A DNA stretch of 64,000 bases from a virus (IMGVR_UViG_3300042887_003609:10485-74484); one strand, 5' to 3'. Shown: positions 37,755-50,414, counted from the stretch's first letter. Made by a program: numbers and translations. Notes: generated by a model not told the origin, from the letters alone.

Positions 37755-37790
37755 AAAATAATAAACCCTGGATTTTAACCCAGGGTTTAT
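37755..37790 (-). terminator. Intrinsic terminator
   Basis: 11-bp perfect stem ATAAACCCTGG/CCAGGGTTTAT (37761-37790) followed by a U-rich tail on the minus strand. Confidence 0.8.
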
Positions 37791-37828
37791 CTAACCTCTA
37801 AAACCAACAAAAGAGATTAACGAATGTA
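37755..37828 (-). ncRNA. Candidate small RNA of about 75 nt (two hairpins)
   Basis: Preceded by the late motif at 37829-37844. Hairpin 1 is UUAAUCUCU-[UUUGUUGGUUUU]-AGAGGUUAG; hairpin 2 is a terminator. No plausible ORF. Confidence 0.45.
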
Positions 37829-37844
37829 TACATATATAATATAG
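37829..37844 (-). promoter_or_regulatory. Putative late promoter with no downstream CDS
   Basis: CTATATTATATATGTA, a close match to the motif. Confidence 0.55.
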
Positions 37845-37883: not shown

Positions 37884-40800
37884 TTACCAAGAGTTTTCCG
37901 TTAATTCTACTTTAGCTACAACCTGCATAGTAAGAGTTCCTCCTCCCACATACGTAGGTGCTGTGAACACCATCGAAAGTTCTTGTGAAGCCCCCGCTGT
38001 ATATGTCATCAATGCCGTACCCGTAATAGAGCCGTCACCTTGAGTACCACTTGTTCCTATTGCAGTAATTGATGAAGTTCCACCAACTCTCTTGAATCCA
38101 AAAGTATTTGTTTCAACCATGTAATCACCTACGGTTACTCCCGTTGCAGTACCACTAATTGCAGTTACTACGGCAACCCATTTAACGGTAACATTCCATG
38201 CACGATTGCTGCCTTCGGGAATAATTAAGTTTGTAGTACCCGTTCCATCAAGAGATAGTGTTAGTGTAGTACCCGTAGTTACGGAAGCACTTCTTCTTCT
38301 TGATACTAATTGAGATGCTTGAGAGTCACCTCTATTTAAAATTAAACTACCATTTGCATGAGCAATTTGACCATATAAGTATGTATCACTTTGTAATCCG
38401 AAAGTTATAGAATAAACATTGCGTGTTGTACTATTTGTACCGAATGAATGACTATTGTTTGCTTGAGCGCTTGCCCCATTTCCAATAGCAATTGCATAAT
38501 TAGCCGCACACCCAATACTATTTTGAAAACCTAAAGTAAAATTTCTAATTCCACTGCTTGAGATTGTATTGTTATGCCCATAGGCTGCACTGTTTTCAGA
38601 AGATACTGTATTTTCCAATCCAAATGATGCACTCTCATTTCCACTAACTAAACTTCCCATAAAAGACGCGCTGTTGCGTGCATTTGCCCTACTATTACAC
38701 CCTGCAGAAAATGAACCATTCCCATTAGCCGTATTTAATGTTCCTCCAGCAATAGAAGCATAACCACCAATTGCAGTGTTTAAATATCCACCTCCAACAA
38801 ATGAATAAACACCACTTGATGTGTTATAAACTCCCCCAACAATAGCACTTCTACATCCAGTCGCACTATTATTTGCACCGCCACCAACAAATGCTGTATG
38901 ACAAGTCGCACAATTATCTTGACCTCCTGATACCGTACTTTGTAAACCAATAGCCTTATTGTTTCTACCTCCACCAATTGTACTAAATACTTGTGTAGCA
39001 CAGTTATTATTACCTCCACCAACAGTTGCCGCTAAATCACACGCTATATTTTCATAACCGCCTCCAACAAATGAAGAAGTACCCGTAGCCAAGTTGTTGC
39101 AACCTCCACCTATGAATGCTGATATACAAGCGCAATTGGAAAATCCTCCCGCTATGGATGAATATGCACCTAATGCTCTGTTTCGTTCGCCTCCTCCAAT
39201 AGAAGAATAAATACCACAAGTTGCATTACTACGACCACCTCCTATAATAGTATTATCACCAATACTACTATTATTATTCCCTCCACCAATAAATGATGAA
39301 CCACCCGACACAACATTGCCTTTGCCTGAACCTAAAGCAGAATATGCACCACTTACAGAATTTGAATCTCCACCGAGAACAGCGGAATATACACCAGTAG
39401 CACCATTTCTAAATCCACCAACAACAGATGCTAACCATCCTGCACCATTTTCCTGACCTCCACCTACAAACGCTCTTCCAAGCCCTGATGCAACATTACA
39501 CACCCCACCTACTACTACAGAACAATCGGTTGTTGCACAATTTCCACGTCCTCCACCAACAAAAGACGCATATCCTGTTGCTTGGTTACCACATCCACCA
39601 ACTACACTTGAATAAACATTAGTAGCGCAGTTGTTTTGCCCTCCACCTACTAAAGTAAAATTACAAGTTGCTTGATTTTGTTGACCACCTACAATAGCAC
39701 TTGTTCTTCCCGAAGATAAATTAGTTTGTCCTGCACCAACAAATGAGTAATTACCACTTGAAGTATTTCCATTACCCGCTACAATACCTGAATATTGACC
39801 ACTTGCAGAATTTGATGTTCCTCCAACTACAACAGACTTTAAAACACTTGCGTTGTTTAGGTTTCCTCCAACTACAACTGAACCATTACCACTTGCAGTA
39901 TTAGATGCACCACCAACCACAATTGAAATATATCCACTTGCACTATTTTGTCTACCCCCAGATATTGTGGAATAAGATGCAGTTGTACTATTTGACAAGC
40001 CTCCTAATATAGATGAAAAATATCCACTTGCAGTGTTTGAACTTCCTCCAACTACAATTGCTCTACTATTGCTTGCATTATTTAAACATCCACTACCAAC
40101 AAATGAACAAGCACCCGTAGCCAAGTTGTTAGAGCCACCACCAATGAATGCCGATGTACAAGCGCAGTTAGAGAATCCACCCGCTACAACGGAATATGAG
40201 CCTAATGCACGGTTAAGTTCTCCACCTAAAATTGAAGAACAAGTACAACTTGCCGTATTGGATGCTCCACCTCCAATGAAAGAACGAGTTGCACTTGCCG
40301 TGTTTGAACTACCACTACCTATAAATGAATTACACCCACTTGCATTATTACCTCTACCGCCACCAACAAATGCATATAAATTACTTGCCGAGTTAATTCT
40401 TCCTCCTGCTACTGTGGCAGCATTTCCACTCGTTGAATTAGCACTTCCACCACCAATAACTCCATATAATGAACTATTTGAATTACTATTACCTCCACTT
40501 ATAGTTGATACTGAACCACTTGCACAGTTACTTGAACCACCACCTATAAATGAACCAGCACCACTTGCAACATTGTTATTGCCACCACCTATAAAAGACC
40601 CATAAGTAGTTGCTCTATTTCCACAACCACCTACAACAGATGAATAAGTTGAAGTGGCACAATTAGATTGACCACCGCCAACAATTCCAAAGTTGCCTTG
40701 AGAAATATTATATTCTCCTCCACCAAGATATGAAGCAAATCCTGTAGCACAGTTTATATGCCCCGCACCAATTCCTGAATACCACTCGGTTGCCTTCATG

Positions 40801-41663
40801 TTTTCACCACCTGAAATGGTTGAATAACAACCTGAAGCAGTGTTTCTTTGTCCACCACTTACGGTAGCAAGAAATCCCGCTTTATTACAATATCCACCAG
40901 AAACCGTTGAAAGTAAATCTAATGCCGAATTACAAGCACCATTTCCAACAAAACTTGCCGTTCCAAGAGCGCAGTTATTTAAACCACCACCTATTGAAGC
41001 ATAAAGACCTATAGATTTATTTGCAGAACCTCCTAAAATTGAAGAGTAGCATCCCGATGAAATGTTATTTATACCCGCTCCTACAAATGCTCCATCACCA
41101 CTTGCACAGTTATTCTGACCACCAAGTACAGCAGAATAATTACCTAATGCCGTATTACCTACATCTGATCTTTGTGTAGAAAGTAAACCAAGACCTTCTT
41201 CATATACACCTCCACCACCAACAGTAGTCCATTCAGTTCCATCCCAACTGTTTATAATAAACTCATCAGTGTTATAAATCATTAAACCAATTGCAGGAGA
41301 TACAATAGCATCTCTTTGAGCAACGGTCATCTTTGGAAATAATACTCCTTTAGTTGTAGATGAAATTTCTAATATAGCAGATGCATCATTAGCTGAAGAA
41401 TCTCCAACTTTTAATGGACCTGAAATTGCTGTTTTGTCAATAGCTAAAAATAATTGTGCTAAATTTCCATCAGGATCCTCTAATGCTCTTAGAGTTGTAG
41501 ACATAGGACCAGAACCTGCTAACTGCAGATAGTCCCCGTAAATTGTTGAATTAATTGCATCAACTAAAGCATTCAAATGTCCAAACTTAACAGCACCTAA
41601 TTGGTCACCTTGTTTAAGATATGGATCTGGACTTTGAGGAATAAACCTTTGTAATTTTGCCAT
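37884..41663 (-). CDS. Gly/Asn/Cys-rich repeat fibre protein (beta-roll, YadA-head-like repeats)
   Basis: 1259 aa. About 15-aa repeats GGxxNxAxGxxSx[VI]; N-terminal SPD...KFGHLN module; SAILEISSTTKGVLFPKMT...GLMIYNTD fibre motif; C-terminal beta domain shared with the small paralogues. Confidence 0.8.
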   Translation of the reverse strand: MAKLQRFIPQSPDPYLKQGDQLGAVKFGHLNALVDAINSTIYGDYLQLAGSGPMSTTLRALEDPDGNLAQLFLAIDKTAISGPLKVGDSSANDASAILEISSTTKGVLFPKMTVAQRDAIVSPAIGLMIYNTDEFIINSWDGTEWTTVGGGGVYEEGLGLLSTQRSDVGNTALGNYSAVLGGQNNCASGDGAFVGAGINNISSGCYSSILGGSANKSIGLYASIGGGLNNCALGTASFVGNGACNSALDLLSTVSGGYCNKAGFLATVSGGQRNTASGCYSTISGGENMKATEWYSGIGAGHINCATGFASYLGGGEYNISQGNFGIVGGGQSNCATSTYSSVVGGCGNRATTYGSFIGGGNNNVASGAGSFIGGGSSNCASGSVSTISGGNSNSNSSLYGVIGGGSANSTSGNAATVAGGRINSASNLYAFVGGGRGNNASGCNSFIGSGSSNTASATRSFIGGGASNTASCTCSSILGGELNRALGSYSVVAGGFSNCACTSAFIGGGSNNLATGACSFVGSGCLNNASNSRAIVVGGSSNTASGYFSSILGGLSNSTTASYSTISGGRQNSASGYISIVVGGASNTASGNGSVVVGGNLNNASVLKSVVVGGTSNSASGQYSGIVAGNGNTSSGNYSFVGAGQTNLSSGRTSAIVGGQQNQATCNFTLVGGGQNNCATNVYSSVVGGCGNQATGYASFVGGGRGNCATTDCSVVVGGVCNVASGLGRAFVGGGQENGAGWLASVVGGFRNGATGVYSAVLGGDSNSVSGAYSALGSGKGNVVSGGSSFIGGGNNNSSIGDNTIIGGGRSNATCGIYSSIGGGERNRALGAYSSIAGGFSNCACISAFIGGGCNNLATGTSSFVGGGYENIACDLAATVGGGNNNCATQVFSTIGGGRNNKAIGLQSTVSGGQDNCATCHTAFVGGGANNSATGCRSAIVGGVYNTSSGVYSFVGGGYLNTAIGGYASIAGGTLNTANGNGSFSAGCNSRANARNSASFMGSLVSGNESASFGLENTVSSENSAAYGHNNTISSSGIRNFTLGFQNSIGCAANYAIAIGNGASAQANNSHSFGTNSTTRNVYSITFGLQSDTYLYGQIAHANGSLILNRGDSQASQLVSRRRSASVTTGTTLTLSLDGTGTTNLIIPEGSNRAWNVTVKWVAVVTAISGTATGVTVGDYMVETNTFGFKRVGGTSSITAIGTSGTQGDGSITGTALMTYTAGASQELSMVFTAPTYVGGGTLTMQVVAKVELTENSW

Positions 41664-41690: not shown

Positions 41691-41706
41691 CCTATATATA
41701 ATATAC
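41691..41706 (-). promoter_or_regulatory. Putative late promoter
   Basis: GTATATTATATATAGG upstream of the fibre gene. Confidence 0.5.
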
Positions 41707-41731: not shown

Positions 41732-41932
41732 TTATTTCAGTCTGATGTATTTATACCATACTCGTTCATGTATATAGTATAATACCATTTTGGTAATTAG
41801 TTCTACCCCACCAATTTTTAATCCGGTAGACATGTTACCTGTAATAATATACCCTAAGAGAATAGTATCAATTGTGCCTACTATTCTCCAGGTAATTGTT
41901 TTTAATATATGTCTTAGTTTGTCACTACTCAT
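41732..41932 (-). CDS. DUF2061-family small membrane protein
   Basis: RHILKTITWRIVGTIDT...ELITKMVLYYIHERVW is the DUF2061 signature; the family is commonly found beside cysC/cysD. Confidence 0.85.
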   Translation of the reverse strand: MSSDKLRHILKTITWRIVGTIDTILLGYIITGNMSTGLKIGGVELITKMVLYYIHERVWYKYIRLK

Positions 41933-42276
41933 AAACCCATTTCTTTACGAATTTTTGTAGCAGATATTTCCTTAATATGATCAGGTACTTCTATTTGTTC
42001 TACCTTGTATCCTACATCTCTTCCATAGTACACACCTTCAATATCCGGAATAATCATTACTTTAACCTTATCTTCAGATATATAAGATTTAAGACTATCT
42101 TCAATCATTGCTTTAACTTGTTCTGCAGTGAATGGATTTTTTTCATCAGTAGGTACATCTCTAATTGCAATTAGAACCGGAAGTTTTTTTTCTTCTAATA
42201 GAGTATCTACAAGATACTTATGACCCCCATGAAAGATTTGGTATCTACCAATCATTAAACTATATTTATTCTTCAT
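41929..42276 (-). CDS. Small HIGH-superfamily nucleotidyltransferase, candidate minimal ATP sulfurylase
   Basis: GRYQIFHGGH (HxxH), NPFT, YYGRDVG and ISATKIR motifs; located in an operon with APS kinase and a sulfotransferase. Confidence 0.7.
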   Translation of the reverse strand: MKNKYSLMIGRYQIFHGGHKYLVDTLLEEKKLPVLIAIRDVPTDEKNPFTAEQVKAMIEDSLKSYISEDKVKVMIIPDIEGVYYGRDVGYKVEQIEVPDHIKEISATKIRKEMGL

Positions 42277-43027
42277 AATGCTTTTTATAAACCTTTGTAC
42301 AAATATCTATAAATTCTTCTTGAGTAAAAACATTTTTCATGATATTTATTTTTTTATGCACCCATTGTAAATTACCAATACTGTAACCTTGATCTGAATT
42401 GATTCTGTCAAGAGAAGCGTTACCAACACCAAATTTATTTTTAGTAACATTGCTAAATACTAAATCCATTCCAGACAAGGCGCATTTTTTATTTTGATTT
42501 AAATAAAGCTCTTCTAAATACTCAATATCAATATCAAAAATAATGTTTCTACTTAAAGCTCCTCTTTTTATTGCTGTAAAAAAAGTTAAAGCTATATGTT
42601 CAGTACCTTTCCAATTTTTGTGAAAATTTCGTTTAGCGTGATGAATACAACCACAAGAAGTAGTATCACCTATTCTTAATGCTTTAGTACTAACTACTTT
42701 ATCACTTCCACAATCACATTTACAATACCAAGCTTTTCTACCATTTCTAGATAACGTTTGAGAAATAACTGTTAGTTTTCCAAATTTTTGATTTATTAAA
42801 TTTACATTATTCACAACTAAACATCCACAACTTGCATATTTACTATTTAATAAATAATTTCTACTTACATACTTTTCATTTCCACAATCACATTTACATT
42901 TAATAAGAGTAATATTACTAACTTTTCCAGTTTTAGATGTTTGTTTACTACTTTTAAAATCATCTAAAACTAAAAGATTCCCAAATTTCTTACCAACAAT
43001 TGACTTATCAAATGGACGGTTTTTCAT
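42266..43027 (-). mobile_element. Free-standing HNH homing endonuclease gene
   Basis: Two KFGxLxV...CKCDCG repeats and a C-terminal KCALSG...ASLDRINSDQGY..GNLQWVHK.IN.MK HNH domain; overlaps both neighbouring genes. Confidence 0.85.
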
Positions 43028-43478
43028 TTGTGTTTTTTATTAAATTAATTACTTTATATACAGATGCTAATTCTGGTTCTTCTGATGTGTTAATTACTAA
43101 ATCAGCATCTTCCGGTACATCAAAATCTAAAACATGAAAGTTTTCTCTACCTCTAAGATCTGTAGCATGATAATGTAGATAAACCCATTTTACATTTTCA
43201 TTTAGTTTAGATAAATATTCTCTAGCTTCTTTATATGGATATACTAAAGTAACTATAACCAAATCTAATTCAAAAGATAAATAGTGAGCAATATCAGAAG
43301 CTGTTTTTAGATTACTAAGTCTTCCTTCCTTTGTATAACTTTTATTGTTAAACATTTGTCTTAGTATATCACCATCTATATGATCAAAGAGTAAACCCCG
43401 GTCATTTAAATCAGCTTTTAATAAATGAGCTATTGTTGACTTACCAGAATGGGGTTGTCCAAATAATACTAATATCAT
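43008..43478 (-). CDS. cysC: Adenylyl-sulfate (APS) kinase
   Basis: P-loop GQPHSGKST, IDGDILR, YTKEGRLSN, VTLVYPY..ARE and FDVP..ADLVINT. Confidence 0.85.
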   Translation of the reverse strand: MILVLFGQPHSGKSTIAHLLKADLNDRGLLFDHIDGDILRQMFNNKSYTKEGRLSNLKTASDIAHYLSFELDLVIVTLVYPYKEAREYLSKLNENVKWVYLHYHATDLRGRENFHVLDFDVPEDADLVINTSEEPELASVYKVINLIKNTNEKPSI

Positions 43479-44293
43479 TTTGTATATCTAAAATATTGAT
43501 TGTACCATTGGAAGTTATCCCAAATCCAGTTAGTAACATCTTTACCCAAAATAGTTTTAGCTTGAGAAGGTACAGGTTCTAATCTTGTTCTAATAACATG
43601 ATCACCATATATACCATATACACTATCATCTTCTTGAGTAATCTGAGGAATATTATCAAAGTCATGCTTATACTGAGGTACACCTAAGTACTCATATATC
43701 TTACGCATTTCTTCATCTGGATATAAACATAAATCTTCAAACTTTACAAAGTGGATATGCTTATCAATACCCTGTCTGATAATTTCATTTAACCTTTCAA
43801 CGGCCATTCCTACAGGTTGAGATGCTAACCAAGCATCAACTCTTTTAGGAGTTGTAGTACCTCTCATTTCAGCATGACTAACAATAGGATCAGTTTTATC
43901 TTGATTCTTTCTAAAGTTCTTTTCCATAGAAGCAATGATATCTCTCATATCTCTAACCATACAAATAATTTTTGGTTGTGGATAAAAGCTATTTAAAAAA
44001 TCATAGTGTATACCCCAGCCACGTGATTTATCTATAACATATTTTTTATCTGTAATAGAATTAAAGAATCCTTCTACACCTTCTTTACAAAAACCTAAGA
44101 AAGCATCTTTCATTAGTTGATGATCCTGAGCTTTAAACTCAGGAGAATCTGTATAGTTTGCTCTTGCTGCAAATACTAATTCTAAAACACCACTAGTAGG
44201 TGTTACATAAAAATCTGGGTTTTGACCAAGTATATTTTGTAATAATGTACTTCCACTTCTTGGTAAAGATGAGTTAAAAAATATTTTTTCCAT
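43475..44293 (-). CDS. PAPS-dependent sulfotransferase
   Basis: 5'-PSB loop SLPRSGSTLL, IDKSRGW, 3'-PB motif MVRDMRDIIAS and VKFEDL...IYEYLG. Confidence 0.9.
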   Translation of the reverse strand: MEKIFFNSSLPRSGSTLLQNILGQNPDFYVTPTSGVLELVFAARANYTDSPEFKAQDHQLMKDAFLGFCKEGVEGFFNSITDKKYVIDKSRGWGIHYDFLNSFYPQPKIICMVRDMRDIIASMEKNFRKNQDKTDPIVSHAEMRGTTTPKRVDAWLASQPVGMAVERLNEIIRQGIDKHIHFVKFEDLCLYPDEEMRKIYEYLGVPQYKHDFDNIPQITQEDDSVYGIYGDHVIRTRLEPVPSQAKTILGKDVTNWIWDNFQWYNQYFRYTK

Positions 44294-44294
44294 A

Positions 44295-45170
44295 TTAGAT
44301 TACTTCTAATGCTTTAATAATGTCTTGTGAATTAAAAATCTCTTTTTCACTATGATAAGGAAACTCTAATGGATCTCCAATGATATTGAATTTTCCTAAG
44401 TATGCATTTCTCAGTTCAGGTTTCTTTGTAAAAAGATTAGCTTCAATGTTAGTGTGAGTGTCATATCCAAATACACCTTTTTTATTAGCTACCCAACAAA
44501 CTACTGATGGTAATAATAGTGCAGCAGCAGCATGTTGTGCAAATGAATCAATTAATAATCTCTTATCACTCATCATTAATAATACACAAAGTGATCTAAA
44601 ATTATCAGATACTGTAATTGCATTTTTTAATTCCGGTTGATCTTCTCTACGGATATGTACAACATTATGTGTACCTTTAAAATGATCTACTACATCTTGT
44701 GCTACTGCATACGGCAGATCTCTAGCCCAAGAGTATTTTACTTCCTGGTTAGGAGCACCACCATTTGTTTGTAAAGTAAGAATAGGTTTATCAGATCTGT
44801 ATTTAGCTGAGAAAAATTCAAGTTCTCTTGCTGTTAGATATAATTTTGGATATTCACCATTATACTGATATCCAAACATTTTGCACCAGGTTTTTAATAA
44901 ATGCTCTGTACCTTGTATATGAGCTACCTCTAAATAAGGATTATGTGCATGTATAATACAATCTTTATCTTCTATAAACTCTTCATAAAAATAAGATTGT
45001 TGTCCAAATCCATATGATCTATCTACATTTGGATTGTTTAAAAAAACATCTGGATACCCAGATACTACAATTAATTTTGCTTCCGGGTGATGATTTTTAA
45101 TACATTCACATACTGCAGTGGCCATTATACACTTTCCAAGACCACCATCAATTTGAAATACTATATTCAT
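44295..45170 (-). CDS. GT-B glycosyltransferase (GT9/heptosyltransferase-like)
   Basis: GGLGKCIMAT...HPEAKLIVV...VFLNNPNV N-terminus and LLIDSFAQHAAAALLLPSVVCW donor-binding motif. Confidence 0.8.
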   Translation of the reverse strand: MNIVFQIDGGLGKCIMATAVCECIKNHHPEAKLIVVSGYPDVFLNNPNVDRSYGFGQQSYFYEEFIEDKDCIIHAHNPYLEVAHIQGTEHLLKTWCKMFGYQYNGEYPKLYLTARELEFFSAKYRSDKPILTLQTNGGAPNQEVKYSWARDLPYAVAQDVVDHFKGTHNVVHIRREDQPELKNAITVSDNFRSLCVLLMMSDKRLLIDSFAQHAAAALLLPSVVCWVANKKGVFGYDTHTNIEANLFTKKPELRNAYLGKFNIIGDPLEFPYHSEKEIFNSQDIIKALEVI

Positions 45171-45175
45171 AAAAG

Positions 45176-45183
45176 CAAATATA
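45176..45183 (-). promoter_or_regulatory. Bacteroidota sigmaA-type -7 promoter element (TAnnTTTG)
   Basis: TATATTTG, 5 nt upstream of the glycosyltransferase ATG; no clear -33 TTTG. Confidence 0.5.
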
Positions 45184-45185
45184 AT

Positions 45186-45217
45186 AAAAAAACCCTGAGA
45201 AATTAATCCCAGGGTTT
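45186..45217 (-). terminator. Intrinsic terminator
   Basis: AAACCCTG-GGATTAATTTCT-CAGGGTTT followed by a T-run on the minus strand. Confidence 0.8.
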
Positions 45218-45238: not shown

Positions 45239-45559
45239 TTAAGCGTTAGAAGATTCCAATGTAACGATAGTTACTGTACCTTCTCCAGTTACAGCTTCAA
45301 CAGCTACTTTAACCTTTTCGTGCATATCAGTAGCTAAGGTAGTACCCCAGAATTGCTCTGCTGTAACTTCTAAGCTTACACGTGAAGGAAGTTCCTGAAT
45401 GTTCAAAGGTGATTTTCCAGCTAAATAATCAGCTTCACTTTTGAAATAAGATACGTTAGTCCATGAATCATTTAAAAGATAAATGCTCAAGAATCCAAAA
45501 CACTCGCTAACCACAAACCCTTCCTGGGTTGTTAGTTCTTTTGATATTTTTACTGCCAT
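45239..45559 (-). CDS. Small, probably highly expressed fibre-associated protein
   Basis: 106 aa, with its own late motif and terminator; codon choice resembles the MCP gene. Confidence 0.6.
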   Translation of the reverse strand: MAVKISKELTTQEGFVVSECFGFLSIYLLNDSWTNVSYFKSEADYLAGKSPLNIQELPSRVSLEVTAEQFWGTTLATDMHEKVKVAVEAVTGEGTVTIVTLESSNA

Positions 45560-45623: not shown

Positions 45624-48600
45624 TTATGTAACAATTTTTAAAGTACCACCATCTGACCAAACTTCACCACTTGATAATCCAGCACTTGAAGTTGGAATAT
45701 TAGTGATTACAAGTTTATTTACGTGGAATGCACACTCTACGTTTGCATTTATTCCACAACCAACCACACTTGAGAAGTTAGCCGCAGCGGTATTACCTAC
45801 ACCACCGAGAACTACAGAATATAATGCAGATGCCGTGTTAACACAACCACCCACAACTACACCATAAGCACCTTGAGCAGTGTTGCACGCTCCACCACCG
45901 ACAAATCCACTACAACCATTAACGGTATTGCTAAATCCACCAAGTAATGAACCATAAGGGAATGAAACCACGTTTCCGCAACCTCCACCTAAAGTTCCAC
46001 AATCAGCCGTTACTTGATTTAAAATACCACCACCCAAGAACGCTCTTGTACCGTCTATGGTGTTTTGTCTACCTCCTCCCATGAAGGATTGGTTTTTATT
46101 ACCACCAATGATGTTTAGGAATCCACTACCAATTGAACTTTCTTGTGCAAATCCATTGATGCCGTTACATCCTCCACCGACAATAATATTTCCCGCACCA
46201 CATACGTAGTTTTGGTATCCACCAACTATTAACGCTCCTTGACCTACCAAGCAGTTGTTTCTACCACCACCTATAAATGATTCAACTCCCACAGCACAGT
46301 TAGAGAATCCACCCGCTACGGCTGAATAATTTCCTAATGCACGGTTGAGTTCTCCCCCACCTACTATTGAAGCACAAGCACACGCAATATTTCTAACCCC
46401 ACCAATAATAGATGAACTATAACCACTTGCTGTATTTCTACTACCACCCCCAACAGTTGCATCATTACGTGTAGCACAATTTGAATAACCACCGCTTACG
46501 GTAGTAGAATAATTGCTCGCAACATTTCCATATCCTCCACCTACGAATGCACGGAGAATACCGCTTGCTATATTTGAATTACCCCCACCAACAAAATTAT
46601 CTCCTCCACTTACCGTATTGTTTCCGCCTCCACCAATAAATCCTCTATATCCACTTACGGTATTACAACTTCCACCTACTAATGAAGAACAATTGCCACT
46701 TACTACGTTTCTACACCCACCACCAACAAAAGACCAACCACCCGTAGCACAGTTATTTTGTCCCGCAGTTACGGCACTATAAGAACCCGCTGCAATATTA
46801 TTTTCTCCACCACCTATAAATGATGTAGTTGCAATTGCTCTATTTAAATAACCACCACCAATAAAAGAATTTATTGCTGTTATACTGTTTCCATTACCCG
46901 AACCTATAAATGAGTATGCTCCGCTTGCACTAATAGAATTTATAAATCCTGCTCCTATTCCCGACCTATAAACAGGTGATGAAATGGTATTTGCAAATCC
47001 AGTTCCAATAAAATTATTTCCTCCACTAACAGAGTTTGCATATCCAGTAACAATAGCAGAACCAATACCACTTACATTGTTCCCGTCGCCACCTAAAACA
47101 GAAGATGAATTAGCACTTGAAGTGTTTCCAACACCCCCACCAACAAATGACCCATATCCCGTTGCCTTATTTCCACACCCTCCTACGACAGAAGAATAGA
47201 TAGAAGTAGCACAGTTAAACGCTCCTCCTACTACGGAGGAGTTATCACCAATAGCACAATTGCAAGTACCCGCTCCAACTAATGCCGCTATAGCACAAGA
47301 ACGATTTAATCGACCACCAACAACTACCGAACATTCTGACTCTGCTCTATTCAATGAGCCGCCTAAAACTGATGAAAAATTTGCAGTAGCACAATTTGAA
47401 GTGCCACCCACTACATTACTTGAATTACCAGTTGATTGGTTGCCATTCCCAAAAGCAACTGAACTAAAACCACTTGCAATAACAGTTGTACCAAAGGCAA
47501 CAGAACCATTATTTGTAGAACTATTACCAGTTCCACCTACCATAGAATCTTGACCCGAAGAAATATTACCGCATCCACCAATAACGACGGCTCTATTACC
47601 ACAAGCAATATTTCCTGTTCCCGCTCCTATAAAATTTCCAAAAAAGTTTGCAATATTATTGCTTCCACCACCAATAAAAGAACAAACTCCTTGACTACAA
47701 ATTAAATTATTTAATCCTCCTGCTATGTTTGAAAAACAATTACAAGCACAGTTATTAACACCACCACCAACAAAACTACCATACCCTAATGCCTTGTTTC
47801 CACACCCTCCTACGACAGAAGAATACACATTAGTAGCACAGTTAAACGCTCCACCTACTACTGATGACCATGAATTTGCGGCTTGGTTTCCAAAACCTCC
47901 ACCTACAGTTGCTCCAACGCCGAATGCTCCATTACCACATCCACCACCTATTACGGCATAACAAGTTGAATCACTTGTGTAGTTTCCACTACCACTACCC
48001 ATAAATGAATATGCACCCGCATTAACATTGTTTTGTCCTCCAACAACCGCTGAATAATATCTTGCTCCAATTCGGTTTCCTTCTCCACCTACTATGACTC
48101 CATATTGAGAAATATCTCTTACACAGTTATTAAATCCACCTCCAATAACCGCTCTGTAACCAAAACTACAATTTGAACATCCTCCGCCCATAAATGCTTG
48201 AGTTCCACTTGCTACGTTACTTGAACCTCCTCCTACTACGGATGCAGACCCACTTGCAGAATTTAAAATTCCACCCGCAACTACCGCATAATCTGTAGCA
48301 CAGTTTTGTTGACCTCCCGCAACGGTAGAAGAAATACCCGAAGCAAGGTTAAGAACACCACCACCTACGGTAGACCTTAAAGGACCTGATGCAGTATTAC
48401 TACACCCACCACCAATTGTTGATTCACATCCACTTGCAATGTTTAATGTTCCTCCACCAACTGCTGAATAGTTACCTCCTGCACGATTACATAGACCTCC
48501 TAAAATAGACGAATATTGATTACATGATAAGTTGTATCTACCTGCTCCAATCATAGAAAAATAATTGGATGCAGTGTTAAATTGTCCACCACCAATGGTC

Positions 48601-50414
48601 GTATACCTACCTATACAAGTTACGTTCCTGTATCCACCACTAATTGTTCCACCGTATTGATCATTACAATTTTGATAACCTCCTGCTATAGTAGCATAAA
48701 ATCCTGAATTTGTATTACCTATTCCACCACCTATTACTAAACCATTTGCTCCAGAACCTATTAAATTATTTAAACCACCTCCAATAAAACTTTGACAAGC
48801 ACAAACTCTATTAAAGTTACCACCTGCAACTGTTGAATAACTTCCAACGGCAGAGTTGCCTGTTCCACCTGATACGGTAGAAATAAAACCTGAAGAAATA
48901 TTACCAATTCCACCACCTACAACAGAAGCATATCCTGATGTTAAGTTTCCACAACCACCTACTACACTTGAATAGACACTTGTAGCACAGTTACCAAAAC
49001 CACCACCTATTAATGCCCATGAAGCCGTATTACATACACGGTTAGATTGACCACCTCCTAAAATTGAGTAAGCACCACTATTTGTATTGCTTGCTCCCGA
49101 TATAATTCCACTTGCAAGACCAATAACGCAGTTAGTTGCTCCCGCCCCTATAAATCCATAAGAACCACTTGCCGTATTAAACTTTCCACTAACTACACTA
49201 TCTCCTATTCCACAAGCCCTATTTGTACATCCACCTCCAACAAATGTATGTGATGCAACGGAACAGTTAGATTGACCACCTACTACGGATGACCAAGAGT
49301 TTGTTGCTTGGTTAGATTGACCACCACCTATAGTTGAAGTAGTTCCACTTGCAGTATTACTACAACCACCACCTACTGTTGAAAGACATCCACTTGCATT
49401 ATTTAGAATCCCTCCTGCAATAGTTGAAGTATTACCACTTGCAGTGTTTGAGTCACCTCCTCCAATAAATGAATTACTTGCGGTTAAAGCAATTGTATTA
49501 CATCTTCCTCCTACAATACTTTGATAGTTTCCACTTATGGTTTGATTTCTACCACCTCCAATAAATCCTACATTACCCAACGCTCTGTTACAAAATCCGT
49601 GCGTAATAACATTACAACCTCCACCGCTTATACAGTTCTGTTGTCCGCTTACTATAGATGATAAATATCCGCAATTTATATTTCCAATACCCGAAAGAAT
49701 ACCTGAATATGTAGTGGTTGATAGGTTATTTACACCTCCACCAATAAAACTCGCATAACCGCTTGCTGTATTGCCACAACCACCAACGATTGCAGAATAA
49801 ACTCCCGTTGCACAGTTGTTTTGTCCACCAAGTGAAGCGGAGTAATTACCCAATGCCGTGTTACCAACAGCACATCTTAAAGATGAACATGCCCCTGTAC
49901 CAAGAACAATTACTTCTTGTGCAAGACTAGATGCAGATCTTGATTTAATCAAACCTGTAGCTGGATCACGTACAAGTACATCATCTACTGATGTATCTAC
50001 AACCGGAGTACTAAAAATATTTAAATTATTTACATAACTTGTACAAGCTGTATTAGCAGTGATATCACTACCCATGATAAATGTATCATCTAAACCATTT
50101 GTACTATTATTTCTTCCGCCTAAAATAGCAGAATAATCACCTGACGCAACTTGAGATGCAAGTGTTCTTGACATTTGTAAATCAACTGCATATTGTCCTC
50201 TGGCATCTCCGCCTACTGCTGTAGCATCAGGACAAGCTGCAATAATTGCACCTGTTCCTAATGTTAAAAGAACCAGATTCATATCTGTGTACGTAGTAGA
50301 ACTAACCGCTAAAAATGCTGATGGTTGAATAGTATCACATGTACCATCAACAAAATTAACTAGACCTCCGCCACCACTACCACCTAATGAGAAAAACTTG
50401 CCGAATGTTGCCAT
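45624..50414 (-). CDS. Gly/Asn/Cys-rich repeat fibre protein
   Basis: 1596 aa, dozens of about 15-aa GGxxNxAxGxxS repeats; RGQYAVDLQ...QVASG module; C-terminal IPTSSAGLSSGEVWSDGGTLKI. Confidence 0.8.
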   Translation of the reverse strand: MATFGKFFSLGGSGGGGLVNFVDGTCDTIQPSAFLAVSSTTYTDMNLVLLTLGTGAIIAACPDATAVGGDARGQYAVDLQMSRTLASQVASGDYSAILGGRNNSTNGLDDTFIMGSDITANTACTSYVNNLNIFSTPVVDTSVDDVLVRDPATGLIKSRSASSLAQEVIVLGTGACSSLRCAVGNTALGNYSASLGGQNNCATGVYSAIVGGCGNTASGYASFIGGGVNNLSTTTYSGILSGIGNINCGYLSSIVSGQQNCISGGGCNVITHGFCNRALGNVGFIGGGRNQTISGNYQSIVGGRCNTIALTASNSFIGGGDSNTASGNTSTIAGGILNNASGCLSTVGGGCSNTASGTTSTIGGGQSNQATNSWSSVVGGQSNCSVASHTFVGGGCTNRACGIGDSVVSGKFNTASGSYGFIGAGATNCVIGLASGIISGASNTNSGAYSILGGGQSNRVCNTASWALIGGGFGNCATSVYSSVVGGCGNLTSGYASVVGGGIGNISSGFISTVSGGTGNSAVGSYSTVAGGNFNRVCACQSFIGGGLNNLIGSGANGLVIGGGIGNTNSGFYATIAGGYQNCNDQYGGTISGGYRNVTCIGRYTTIGGGQFNTASNYFSMIGAGRYNLSCNQYSSILGGLCNRAGGNYSAVGGGTLNIASGCESTIGGGCSNTASGPLRSTVGGGVLNLASGISSTVAGGQQNCATDYAVVAGGILNSASGSASVVGGGSSNVASGTQAFMGGGCSNCSFGYRAVIGGGFNNCVRDISQYGVIVGGEGNRIGARYYSAVVGGQNNVNAGAYSFMGSGSGNYTSDSTCYAVIGGGCGNGAFGVGATVGGGFGNQAANSWSSVVGGAFNCATNVYSSVVGGCGNKALGYGSFVGGGVNNCACNCFSNIAGGLNNLICSQGVCSFIGGGSNNIANFFGNFIGAGTGNIACGNRAVVIGGCGNISSGQDSMVGGTGNSSTNNGSVAFGTTVIASGFSSVAFGNGNQSTGNSSNVVGGTSNCATANFSSVLGGSLNRAESECSVVVGGRLNRSCAIAALVGAGTCNCAIGDNSSVVGGAFNCATSIYSSVVGGCGNKATGYGSFVGGGVGNTSSANSSSVLGGDGNNVSGIGSAIVTGYANSVSGGNNFIGTGFANTISSPVYRSGIGAGFINSISASGAYSFIGSGNGNSITAINSFIGGGYLNRAIATTSFIGGGENNIAAGSYSAVTAGQNNCATGGWSFVGGGCRNVVSGNCSSLVGGSCNTVSGYRGFIGGGGNNTVSGGDNFVGGGNSNIASGILRAFVGGGYGNVASNYSTTVSGGYSNCATRNDATVGGGSRNTASGYSSSIIGGVRNIACACASIVGGGELNRALGNYSAVAGGFSNCAVGVESFIGGGRNNCLVGQGALIVGGYQNYVCGAGNIIVGGGCNGINGFAQESSIGSGFLNIIGGNKNQSFMGGGRQNTIDGTRAFLGGGILNQVTADCGTLGGGCGNVVSFPYGSLLGGFSNTVNGCSGFVGGGACNTAQGAYGVVVGGCVNTASALYSVVLGGVGNTAAANFSSVVGCGINANVECAFHVNKLVITNIPTSSAGLSSGEVWSDGGTLKIVT
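47164..47861. repeat. Near-identical direct repeat of about 71 bp (47164-47234 and 47791-47861) inside the fibre gene
   Basis: About 6 mismatches in 71 nt by manual alignment. Confidence 0.85.

Follow-up and report, generated by a model that had tools for sequence, protein, structure and literature searches.

The 64,000-nt window analysed here (IMGVR_UViG_3300042887_003609:10485-74484; positions are counted from its first letter) is viral DNA that carries a chain of six tightly coupled genes between two long fibre genes. Two of the six encode a virus-specific transferase with the fold of glycosyltransferase family 9 (GT9) and a sulfotransferase, and this pair is tied to adhesin-like fibre genes in related phage loci. 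It is often followed by a unit composed of a kinase, a small nucleotidyltransferase (NTase) and a DUF2061 membrane protein, which is linked by operon order and gene fusions to the metabolism of 3'-phosphoadenosine-5'-phosphosulfate (PAPS). The best single reading of the locus, to which we give a probability of about 0.45, is that of a glycan-sulfation cassette with a PAPS supply, by which the phage would decorate its own fibres. The GT9-fold enzyme would transfer a sugar, to which the sulfotransferase would add sulfate from PAPS. The donor would be supplied in two steps: the NTase, a minimal protein resembling nicotinamide mononucleotide adenylyltransferase (NMNAT), would adenylylate sulfate (ATP + sulfate -> adenosine-5'-phosphosulfate (APS) + pyrophosphate), and a relative of APS kinase that has no lid segment would phosphorylate APS to PAPS, with DUF2061 as a putative membrane accessory of PAPS metabolism. 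The acceptor would be the beta-roll fibres, which are encoded by the adjacent genes and synthesised in the same cytoplasm; provided that sulfation takes place, we rate the chance that the fibres are its target as even.

All genes of the region, and the other features of the window described below, lie on the minus strand. The first gene of the chain (gene 1, 44295..45170) encodes a 291 amino acid (aa) probable glycosyltransferase with a GT-B fold related to GT9 heptosyltransferases, and is followed by genes for a 272-aa PAPS-type sulfotransferase (gene 2, 43475..44293) and a 156-aa APS-kinase-like P-loop kinase (gene 3, 43008..43478). Downstream of these are a gene for a 253-aa HNH homing-endonuclease-like protein (42266..43027), that for the 115-aa HxGH/ISxT NTase, a candidate sulfate adenylyltransferase (41929..42276), and that for the 66-aa, host-like DUF2061 protein (41732..41932). 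Successive open reading frames (ORFs) are separated by a gap of 1 nt and then overlap by 4, 20, 11 and 4 nt, in agreement with the tightly coupled chain described in an initial annotation of the sequence. The source is a 74.5-kb linear virus record that is 61% complete; a head protein match (phrog_11589), virion-protein matches and one 4683-aa gene are consistent with its crAss-like label. The stretch was detected in lake-water metagenomes (20 runs from 19 studies), and contigs from several of these runs span the cassette, including the HNH gene, with zero differences over the compared pieces. Because these contigs match it, the gene layout is not an assembly artefact.

The flanking genes encode the Ser/Thr/Asn/Cys-rich repeat fibres of a virion module that had initially been reported, since composition, repeats and virion neighbours all hold. 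Fibre paralog 1 (45624..50414, 1596 aa) precedes the cassette and fibre paralog 2 (37884..41663, 1259 aa) follows it. The two proteins contain 55-84 repeats of ~15 residues (~84 in paralog 1) with the pattern GGxxNxA(S/T)Gx(Y)Sx(V/I)x, are composed of 19-22% Gly, 13-14% Ser, 10% Asn, 7-8% Thr and 2.7-4.3% Cys, and sit among virion genes. Fibre paralog 2 is related to the heads of trimeric autotransporter adhesins, matching the head of UspA1 (3pr7) at 1.3e-20 over residues 833-1066 and CbpF at 4e-4. The only Pfam match of the fibres is a weak one between paralog 1 and the beta-roll family LbR_Ice_bind (0.0023, below cut-off), and no PHROG match was obtained for either. The Cys residues are spread through the repeats, at a frequency that seems high for a protein made in the cytoplasm.

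Relatives of the sulfotransferase number 167 in IMG/VR, and the best 80 of these (60-70% identical, on contigs of 4 to 385 kb) provide the set of related loci referred to throughout. The GT9-like gene adjoins the sulfotransferase gene in 62 of them, the kinase-NTase-DUF2061 unit comes after the sulfotransferase in 35-36, and a fibre homologue is present in 48. Of the 51 loci that extend 4 kb or more to each side, 47 contain a fibre ORF, which in 34 is no more than two genes away. The fibre gene is mostly upstream, although one group has it downstream on the opposite strand and others on both sides, and the far flank varies between relatives, being occupied by primase, helicase or other genes. 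The linkage of this gene set to fibres was thus borne out, in that most of the related phage loci have the sulfotransferase and GT9-like pair next to a member of the fibre family, the arrangement being variable. A single-protein search for fibre relatives returned only two near-identical loci. Across the 80 loci the GT9-like proteins are 37-71% identical to that of the window, and clusters of the sulfotransferase family are 79-100% viral. Neither the GT9-like family nor the NTase family was found in 401 sampled Bacteroidia genomes. This distribution would fit a viral substrate.

Other genes are also represented in the related cassettes. Some loci contain two sulfotransferases, and additional transferases of the GT8 (1e-18) and GT25 (2e-6) families are found (L019:5444-7097; L028:7369-8001), where an unassigned 302-aa protein travels with GT8. 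A gene encoding a 128-aa SET-domain protein lies between the GT9-like and sulfotransferase genes in one group of these cassettes (L002:4908-5291, and also L008-L010, L015 and L016), suggestive of methylation of proteins as a further activity of the module.

Gene 1 gave no Pfam match at E 0.1 or better (the gathering score of PF01075 is not reached), no NCBIfam match and no PDB sequence match at E 10 or better, yet its initial label as GT9-like is confirmed by comparisons of fold and profile. The best Foldseek matches of its AlphaFold2 (AF2) model (predicted local distance difference test score, pLDDT, 94.5; 45 homologues) are all GT9 proteins, namely 3tov (9.5e-12), WaaF (1psw, 1.5e-10), WaaC (~1e-9 to 1e-8) and TibC (7e-7), and hhalign of the gene 1 family against four Bacteroidota GT9 proteins gave 96.2% probability (E 2.6e-9, 217 columns). 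The C-terminal DSxxxH motif on the donor side is kept, and its residues D208, S209 and H213 are invariant across the phage family. The Asp of the GT9 'GD' motif, the catalytic base Asp13 in WaaC, is replaced by an invariant lysine, Lys13 (GLGK vs xxGD). Gene 1 is thus GT9-like by modelled fold and distant homology, and not a canonical member of GT9.

The assignment of gene 2 as a sulfotransferase is secure. Both PF13469 (4e-22; 80 bits, cut-off 27) and PF00685 (1e-14; 55 bits, cut-off 22) score well above their cut-offs, the protein matches phrog_27463 at 1e-41, and the PAPS-binding motifs, 5'-PSB (PRSGST) and 3'-PB (RD...S), are present and align to those of TPST1. Gene 3 is likewise an APS kinase at the level of family, as first annotated. 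It matches PF01583 at 1e-14 (55 bits, cut-off 21) over profile positions 4-108 of 152, and APS kinases or APS-kinase domains account for 23 of its 24 PDB sequence matches at E 0.1 or better, the best being 8a8h (6.6e-12); the only other match, also the weakest, is a marginal one to adenylate kinase. When aligned with the CysC protein of Christiangramia, the P-loop, DGDxxR and (F/Y)S..GR motifs are seen to be kept.

The NTase matches PF01467 (3e-5) and possesses the HxGH (GRxQxxHxGH) and ISxT..R (ISxTxIR) motifs that it has in common with archaeal or NadM-type NMNAT. These are its best relatives in both sequence and fold: in a PDB profile search the matches to NadM and to archaeal NMNAT reached 5e-10, with 35% identity across 108 residues, and in VIA-align comparisons NMNAT (1f9a, Z 10.9) ranks above phosphopantetheine adenylyltransferase (PPAT, Z 10.3) and ATP sulfurylase (1v47, Z 7.9 over 110 residues), with yeast ATP sulfurylase and PAPSS1 at Z 6.2-6.7. 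The protein therefore shares the HxGH nucleotidyltransferase fold of Sat-type ATP sulfurylase, which ranks below NMNAT, and no match to the Sat-type family PF01747 was found either by hmmscan or in the PDB profile search (E 1 or better). An ATP sulfurylase had been envisaged initially; by sequence the NTase is not of the Sat type. Since it is closest to NMNAT and has no Sat-family match, it is from gene context that we infer a sulfate-adenylylating role and, with it, synthesis of PAPS from scratch.

The NTase is not a conventional NMNAT either. It falls below every NCBIfam NMNAT cut-off (best score 39.8 vs a cut-off of 127) and, at 115 aa compared with 164-181 aa, is ~50 residues shorter than the full-length enzyme. 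Some of this difference stems from the loss of ~23 residues from the stretch that connects the IPDI strand to the GY motif (~24 profile positions vs 47 residues in 1f9a), a segment that in NMNAT holds the NMN (nicotinamide mononucleotide) site. A deletion at this position would fit a small co-substrate. Furthermore, the partner of the phage protein is a relative of APS kinase and not a set of NAD genes. There are at least 927 longer relatives of the NTase, and most of the 120 listed also carry an APS-kinase domain, in the order kinase then transferase (as also in phrog_10255), which is the order seen in animal PAPS synthase. For example, Xylella phage Sano gp35 (L161:4584-5321) and Stenotrophomonas phage DLP_6 AAY80_227 (L162:3590-4321) are fused kinase-NTase proteins of ~245 aa, annotated as 'kinase' or hypothetical, whose NTase half is 44-49% identical to that of the window. 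Of 34 NTase-centred viral loci with enough flanking sequence, 27 contain the kinase gene and 19 the DUF2061 gene.

The DUF2061 gene (PF09834, 7e-24; 84 bits, cut-off 23) provides a further connection with sulfate activation. Its product is 61-80% identical to the tandem DUF2061 proteins listed, of which the named ones are from Flavobacteriaceae. In this family the gene order cysQ-DUF2061-cysC-cysD-cysN is found in 57-59 of 59 loci (L081-L160, e.g. L081:7214-11286), the host DUF2061 between cysQ and cysC being the tandem form of ~140 aa. Fusions are found of NTase with DUF2061 (P0268 and P0339) and of CysQ with DUF2061 (P0191). We found no paper that assigns a function to DUF2061; judging by these gene arrangements, it seems to be a membrane protein with an uncharacterised part in PAPS metabolism. 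The Christiangramia locus (L081) adjoins genes for a UDP-sugar dehydrogenase and an epimerase. No CysQ was found in the 74.5-kb record, nor any PAPS reductase, the absence of which had been noted earlier for the window and holds for the record at its 61% completeness.

Several findings weigh against the sulfation of fibres by a self-sufficient cassette. The NTase resembles NMNAT and PPAT more closely than ATP sulfurylase and has no PF01747 match, and no Sat-type ATP sulfurylase was found in the record. The kinase lacks the lid of ~14 residues that true APS kinases possess, as seen in the Christiangramia CysC, and falls below NCBIfam cut-offs (TIGR00455 score 53 vs 138.7). About half of the sulfotransferase loci are without the PAPS kit, a sulfotransferase of the gene 2 kind is present in only 15 of 33 NTase-bearing viral records, and one such record that is 90% complete has no Sulfotransfer_3 match. 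The fused kinase-NTase genes of Sano and DLP_6 are located in early or DNA-metabolism regions, and these complete genomes contain neither a Sulfotransfer_3 nor a DUF2061 match. With respect to the pair itself, the Asp of the GD motif is replaced in gene 1, and GT8, GT9 and GT25 are families that typically build the core of lipopolysaccharide (LPS). The fibre family is also found without the cassette (L164 and L165), and none of the runs listed as containing the stretch is an RNA run.

One alternative, which we consider rather unlikely, is that the kinase-NTase(-DUF2061) unit has a function other than PAPS synthesis and that it produces or salvages some other adenylylated and phosphorylated metabolite, for example of the NAD or coenzyme A type or a counter-defence nucleotide, leaving the sulfotransferase to use host PAPS. 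The affinity of the NTase with NMNAT and PPAT, the lid-less kinase, the sulfotransferase loci without the unit and the fused forms beside DNA-metabolism genes, in phages without a Sulfotransfer_3 match, could all be accommodated in this way. Such a role is difficult to reconcile with the absence from the NTase of the IPDI-to-GY segment of NMNAT, with the fact that all but one of the PDB matches of the kinase are APS kinases or APS-kinase domains, and with the operon order and fusions that connect the unit, through DUF2061, with cysQ, cysC and cysDN. In addition, in 32 of 33 loci the genes of the unit overlap one another and follow that of the sulfotransferase. Taking both sides into account, the odds are slightly in favour of the unit making PAPS.

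The main rival to fibre decoration is that sugar transfer and sulfation take place on an envelope glycan of the host (LPS core, O-unit or capsule precursor at the inner membrane), altering the receptor of the neighbouring fibres. The proposed effect would be superinfection exclusion, or the prevention of progeny sticking to debris. The glycosyltransferase families of the window and related cassettes (GT9, GT8 and GT25) are those classically involved in the LPS core, DUF2061 is a membrane protein, and the host-type operon abuts polysaccharide genes in one scanned locus, that of Christiangramia. Adjacency to fibre genes fits this alternative too, because genes that modify receptors are often beside genes for receptor binding. 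It is unlikely, in our view, on three grounds. Conservation of virus-specific GT9-like (37-71%) and sulfotransferase (60-70%) proteins over 80 loci would be surprising in enzymes whose targets, the glycans of the host, are variable, a lytic crAss-like phage with the cassette beside late fibre genes would gain little from late masking of its receptor, and the GT9 Asp that is replaced is on the acceptor side.

It is also conceivable, with a distinctly lower probability, that the sulfotransferase acts directly on Tyr or Ser/Thr residues of the fibre protein, as TPST and RaxST do on their substrates, with a separate role for the GT9-like enzyme. Among the PDB sequence matches of gene 2, sulfotransferases are represented solely by TPST1, the best match, and TPST2. 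That match is weak (1e-4) and consists mainly of the PAPS-binding motifs, and in this weak alignment the TPST 'GEET' segment corresponds to 'TPTS' in gene 2. Tyr is the commonest residue at one position of the fibre repeat (11/26 and 11/41 repeats), and in five loci (L052, L055, L060, L071 and L072) the sulfotransferase gene is next to a fibre gene even without a GT9-like gene. Against these must be set the pairing with a GT9-like gene in 62 of the 80 loci and the best NCBIfam match of gene 2, which is to a sugar sulfotransferase, the fucose sulfotransferase NoeE (NoeE-like, 1.3e-11, below cut-off).

Phage sulfotransferase and cysC genes are listed in virome papers as unvalidated auxiliary genes (PMC8290583, PMC10829341, PMC12713726), and phage cysC is usually read as part of a set that boosts host cysteine synthesis during infection, being listed as an assimilatory sulfate-reduction auxiliary gene that is 'not validated' (PMC12713726). 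The kinase-NTase unit does occur without sulfotransferases in some phages, but at this locus it is part of one chain of overlapping genes that also encodes a sulfotransferase and a glycosyltransferase and is flanked by fibre genes, in a record without a PAPS reductase, and a role in sulfur assimilation is very unlikely. Predictions of nucleotide sulfation in phages are cited in PMC10829341; DNA was considered as a target of the cassette and rejected, there being no DNA-metabolism neighbour at the window locus. In the literature we found no paper that joins sulfotransferases with crAss-like phages or fibres, that names a function for a phage sulfotransferase or that describes sulfation of phage virions.

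Several known systems share features with the cassette. The rhizobial nodPQ and nodH/noeE genes similarly encode a sulfate-activating pair and a carbohydrate sulfotransferase (NoeE being the nearest NCBIfam relative of gene 2) together with glycosyltransferases. In contrast to the phage unit, NodPQ is of the CysDN/CysC type, whereas the phage candidate consists of an unrelated 115-aa NMNAT-like protein and a lid-less kinase; moreover, the phage set adjoins fibre genes and includes DUF2061. In PAPSS1/2 and the Sat-CysC fusions (Aquifex, 2gks) two steps are coupled by adjacency or fusion, as they may be in the phage, the kinase is homologous and the transferase shares the HxGH fold (Z 6.2-7.9). 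The transferase of these bifunctional PAPS synthases is, however, ~200 aa or more and has an additional PUA-like domain, whereas the candidate transferase of the phage is ~115 aa, has no PF01747 match and is nearer to NMNAT.

A precedent for the glycosylation step is found in TibC-TibA and Aah-AIDA-I, in which a GT9-fold heptosyltransferase is encoded beside a long Ser/Thr-rich repeat adhesin of the beta-solenoid type and glycosylates it. Gene 1 differs from TibC in being nearer to WaaF, WaaC and 3tov and in its length (291 aa vs ~390 residues in TibC), the phage fibre resembles the head of a trimeric autotransporter (UspA1) and not an AIDA-type passenger, and sulfation has no counterpart in these systems. 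In mycobacteriophages and giant viruses, virus-encoded transferases decorate the structural proteins of the virus itself. To our knowledge neither sulfation nor a donor-synthesis kit of this kind has been described for them.

In its strictest form, the fibre-sulfation reading would make the ~115-residue NMNAT-like protein a third class of ATP sulfurylase which, with the lid-less kinase and DUF2061, would constitute the smallest known PAPS synthase, and the fibres the first case of virion sulfation; this we consider doubtful. If the reading is correct, many phage 'cysC' genes that are counted as sulfur-assimilation auxiliary genes would feed a sulfotransferase, and a very small, easily assayed enzyme family (at least 927 longer relatives, a good number of which are kinase fusions) would widen the known range of sulfate activation. 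DUF2061 would gain a functional context in PAPS metabolism. The fibres would have a negatively charged glycan coat, which could affect adsorption, host range, stickiness towards polysaccharides and recognition by grazers; mimicry of Sus ligands by sulfated fibres is speculation. The biochemistry is directly testable, since the fused enzyme is encoded by two phages in culture, Sano and DLP_6.

The HNH gene had been counted as a member of the cassette, but it is absent from all 80 related loci. Its assignment is based on phrog_374 (3e-31), which is its sole family support, as no Pfam HNH match was found. In related loci that have the unit, kinase and NTase are adjacent, encoded by separate overlapping genes in 32 of 33 cases and fused in 1 of 33. 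Because the two are separate genes in 32 of 33 loci, the HNH gene sits between genes, and the idea of a split gene or intron comprising kinase, HNH and NTase was rejected. It is present as a single copy in the record, overlaps the kinase gene by 20 nt and the NTase gene by 11 nt, and over ~200 nt its DNA is 69% identical to that of genes from Bacteroides crAss-like phages. It thus represents a free-standing mobile endonuclease inserted exactly at the kinase/NTase junction, and not a member of the pathway. Both of its borders read ATGAARAAY (Met-Lys-Asn), a similarity of 9 nt that is too short to be called a target duplication. One low-stringency contig (run X8) skips 42165-43131, approximately the HNH region; it represents a diverged relative and a single contig, and was not used as evidence. 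A SegE-like GIY-YIG gene is found directly beside the GT9-like/sulfotransferase pair at L033:2845-3318 and in seven other loci. The edge of the cassette seems to be a favoured site for homing endonucleases, and these come from different families.

Between fibre paralog 1 and the cassette lies a gene for a 106-aa protein (45239..45559), which gave no Pfam or PHROG match. Homologues with 53-64% identity are encoded after fibre genes in L005 and L013, and also in L164 and L165, which are without the cassette. The protein belongs with the fibre, not with the cassette, and may be a fibre assembly factor or a partner at the fibre tip. Other relatives encode a similarly sized DUF7936 protein at this position.

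A promoter-like motif, TATATTATATAT, occurs in the 68-nt spacer before fibre paralog 2 (41694..41705), where a late promoter had been proposed. With TTGC ~20 nt upstream it is found in two intergenic spacers (41694-41705 and 37832-37843). The proposal is reduced to a putative motif, as the count of TATATTATATAT is not above chance, and a sigma-70 scan gave sites no more numerous than in shuffles. The terminator proposed upstream of the cassette was recovered as a strong intrinsic terminator-like hairpin with an 11-bp stem and a T-run, located between the fibre unit and the cassette, 20 nt ahead of gene 1 (45190..45217, read from 45217 to 45190). Past this hairpin there is a TAnnTTTG-like box, 7 nt ahead of the gene 1 start codon. 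Terminator-like sites in the region number 5, compared with 1.4 expected. A second, near-identical hairpin (37760-37795) follows fibre paralog 2, and the stems of both are formed by AAACCCTGGG...CAGGGTTT.

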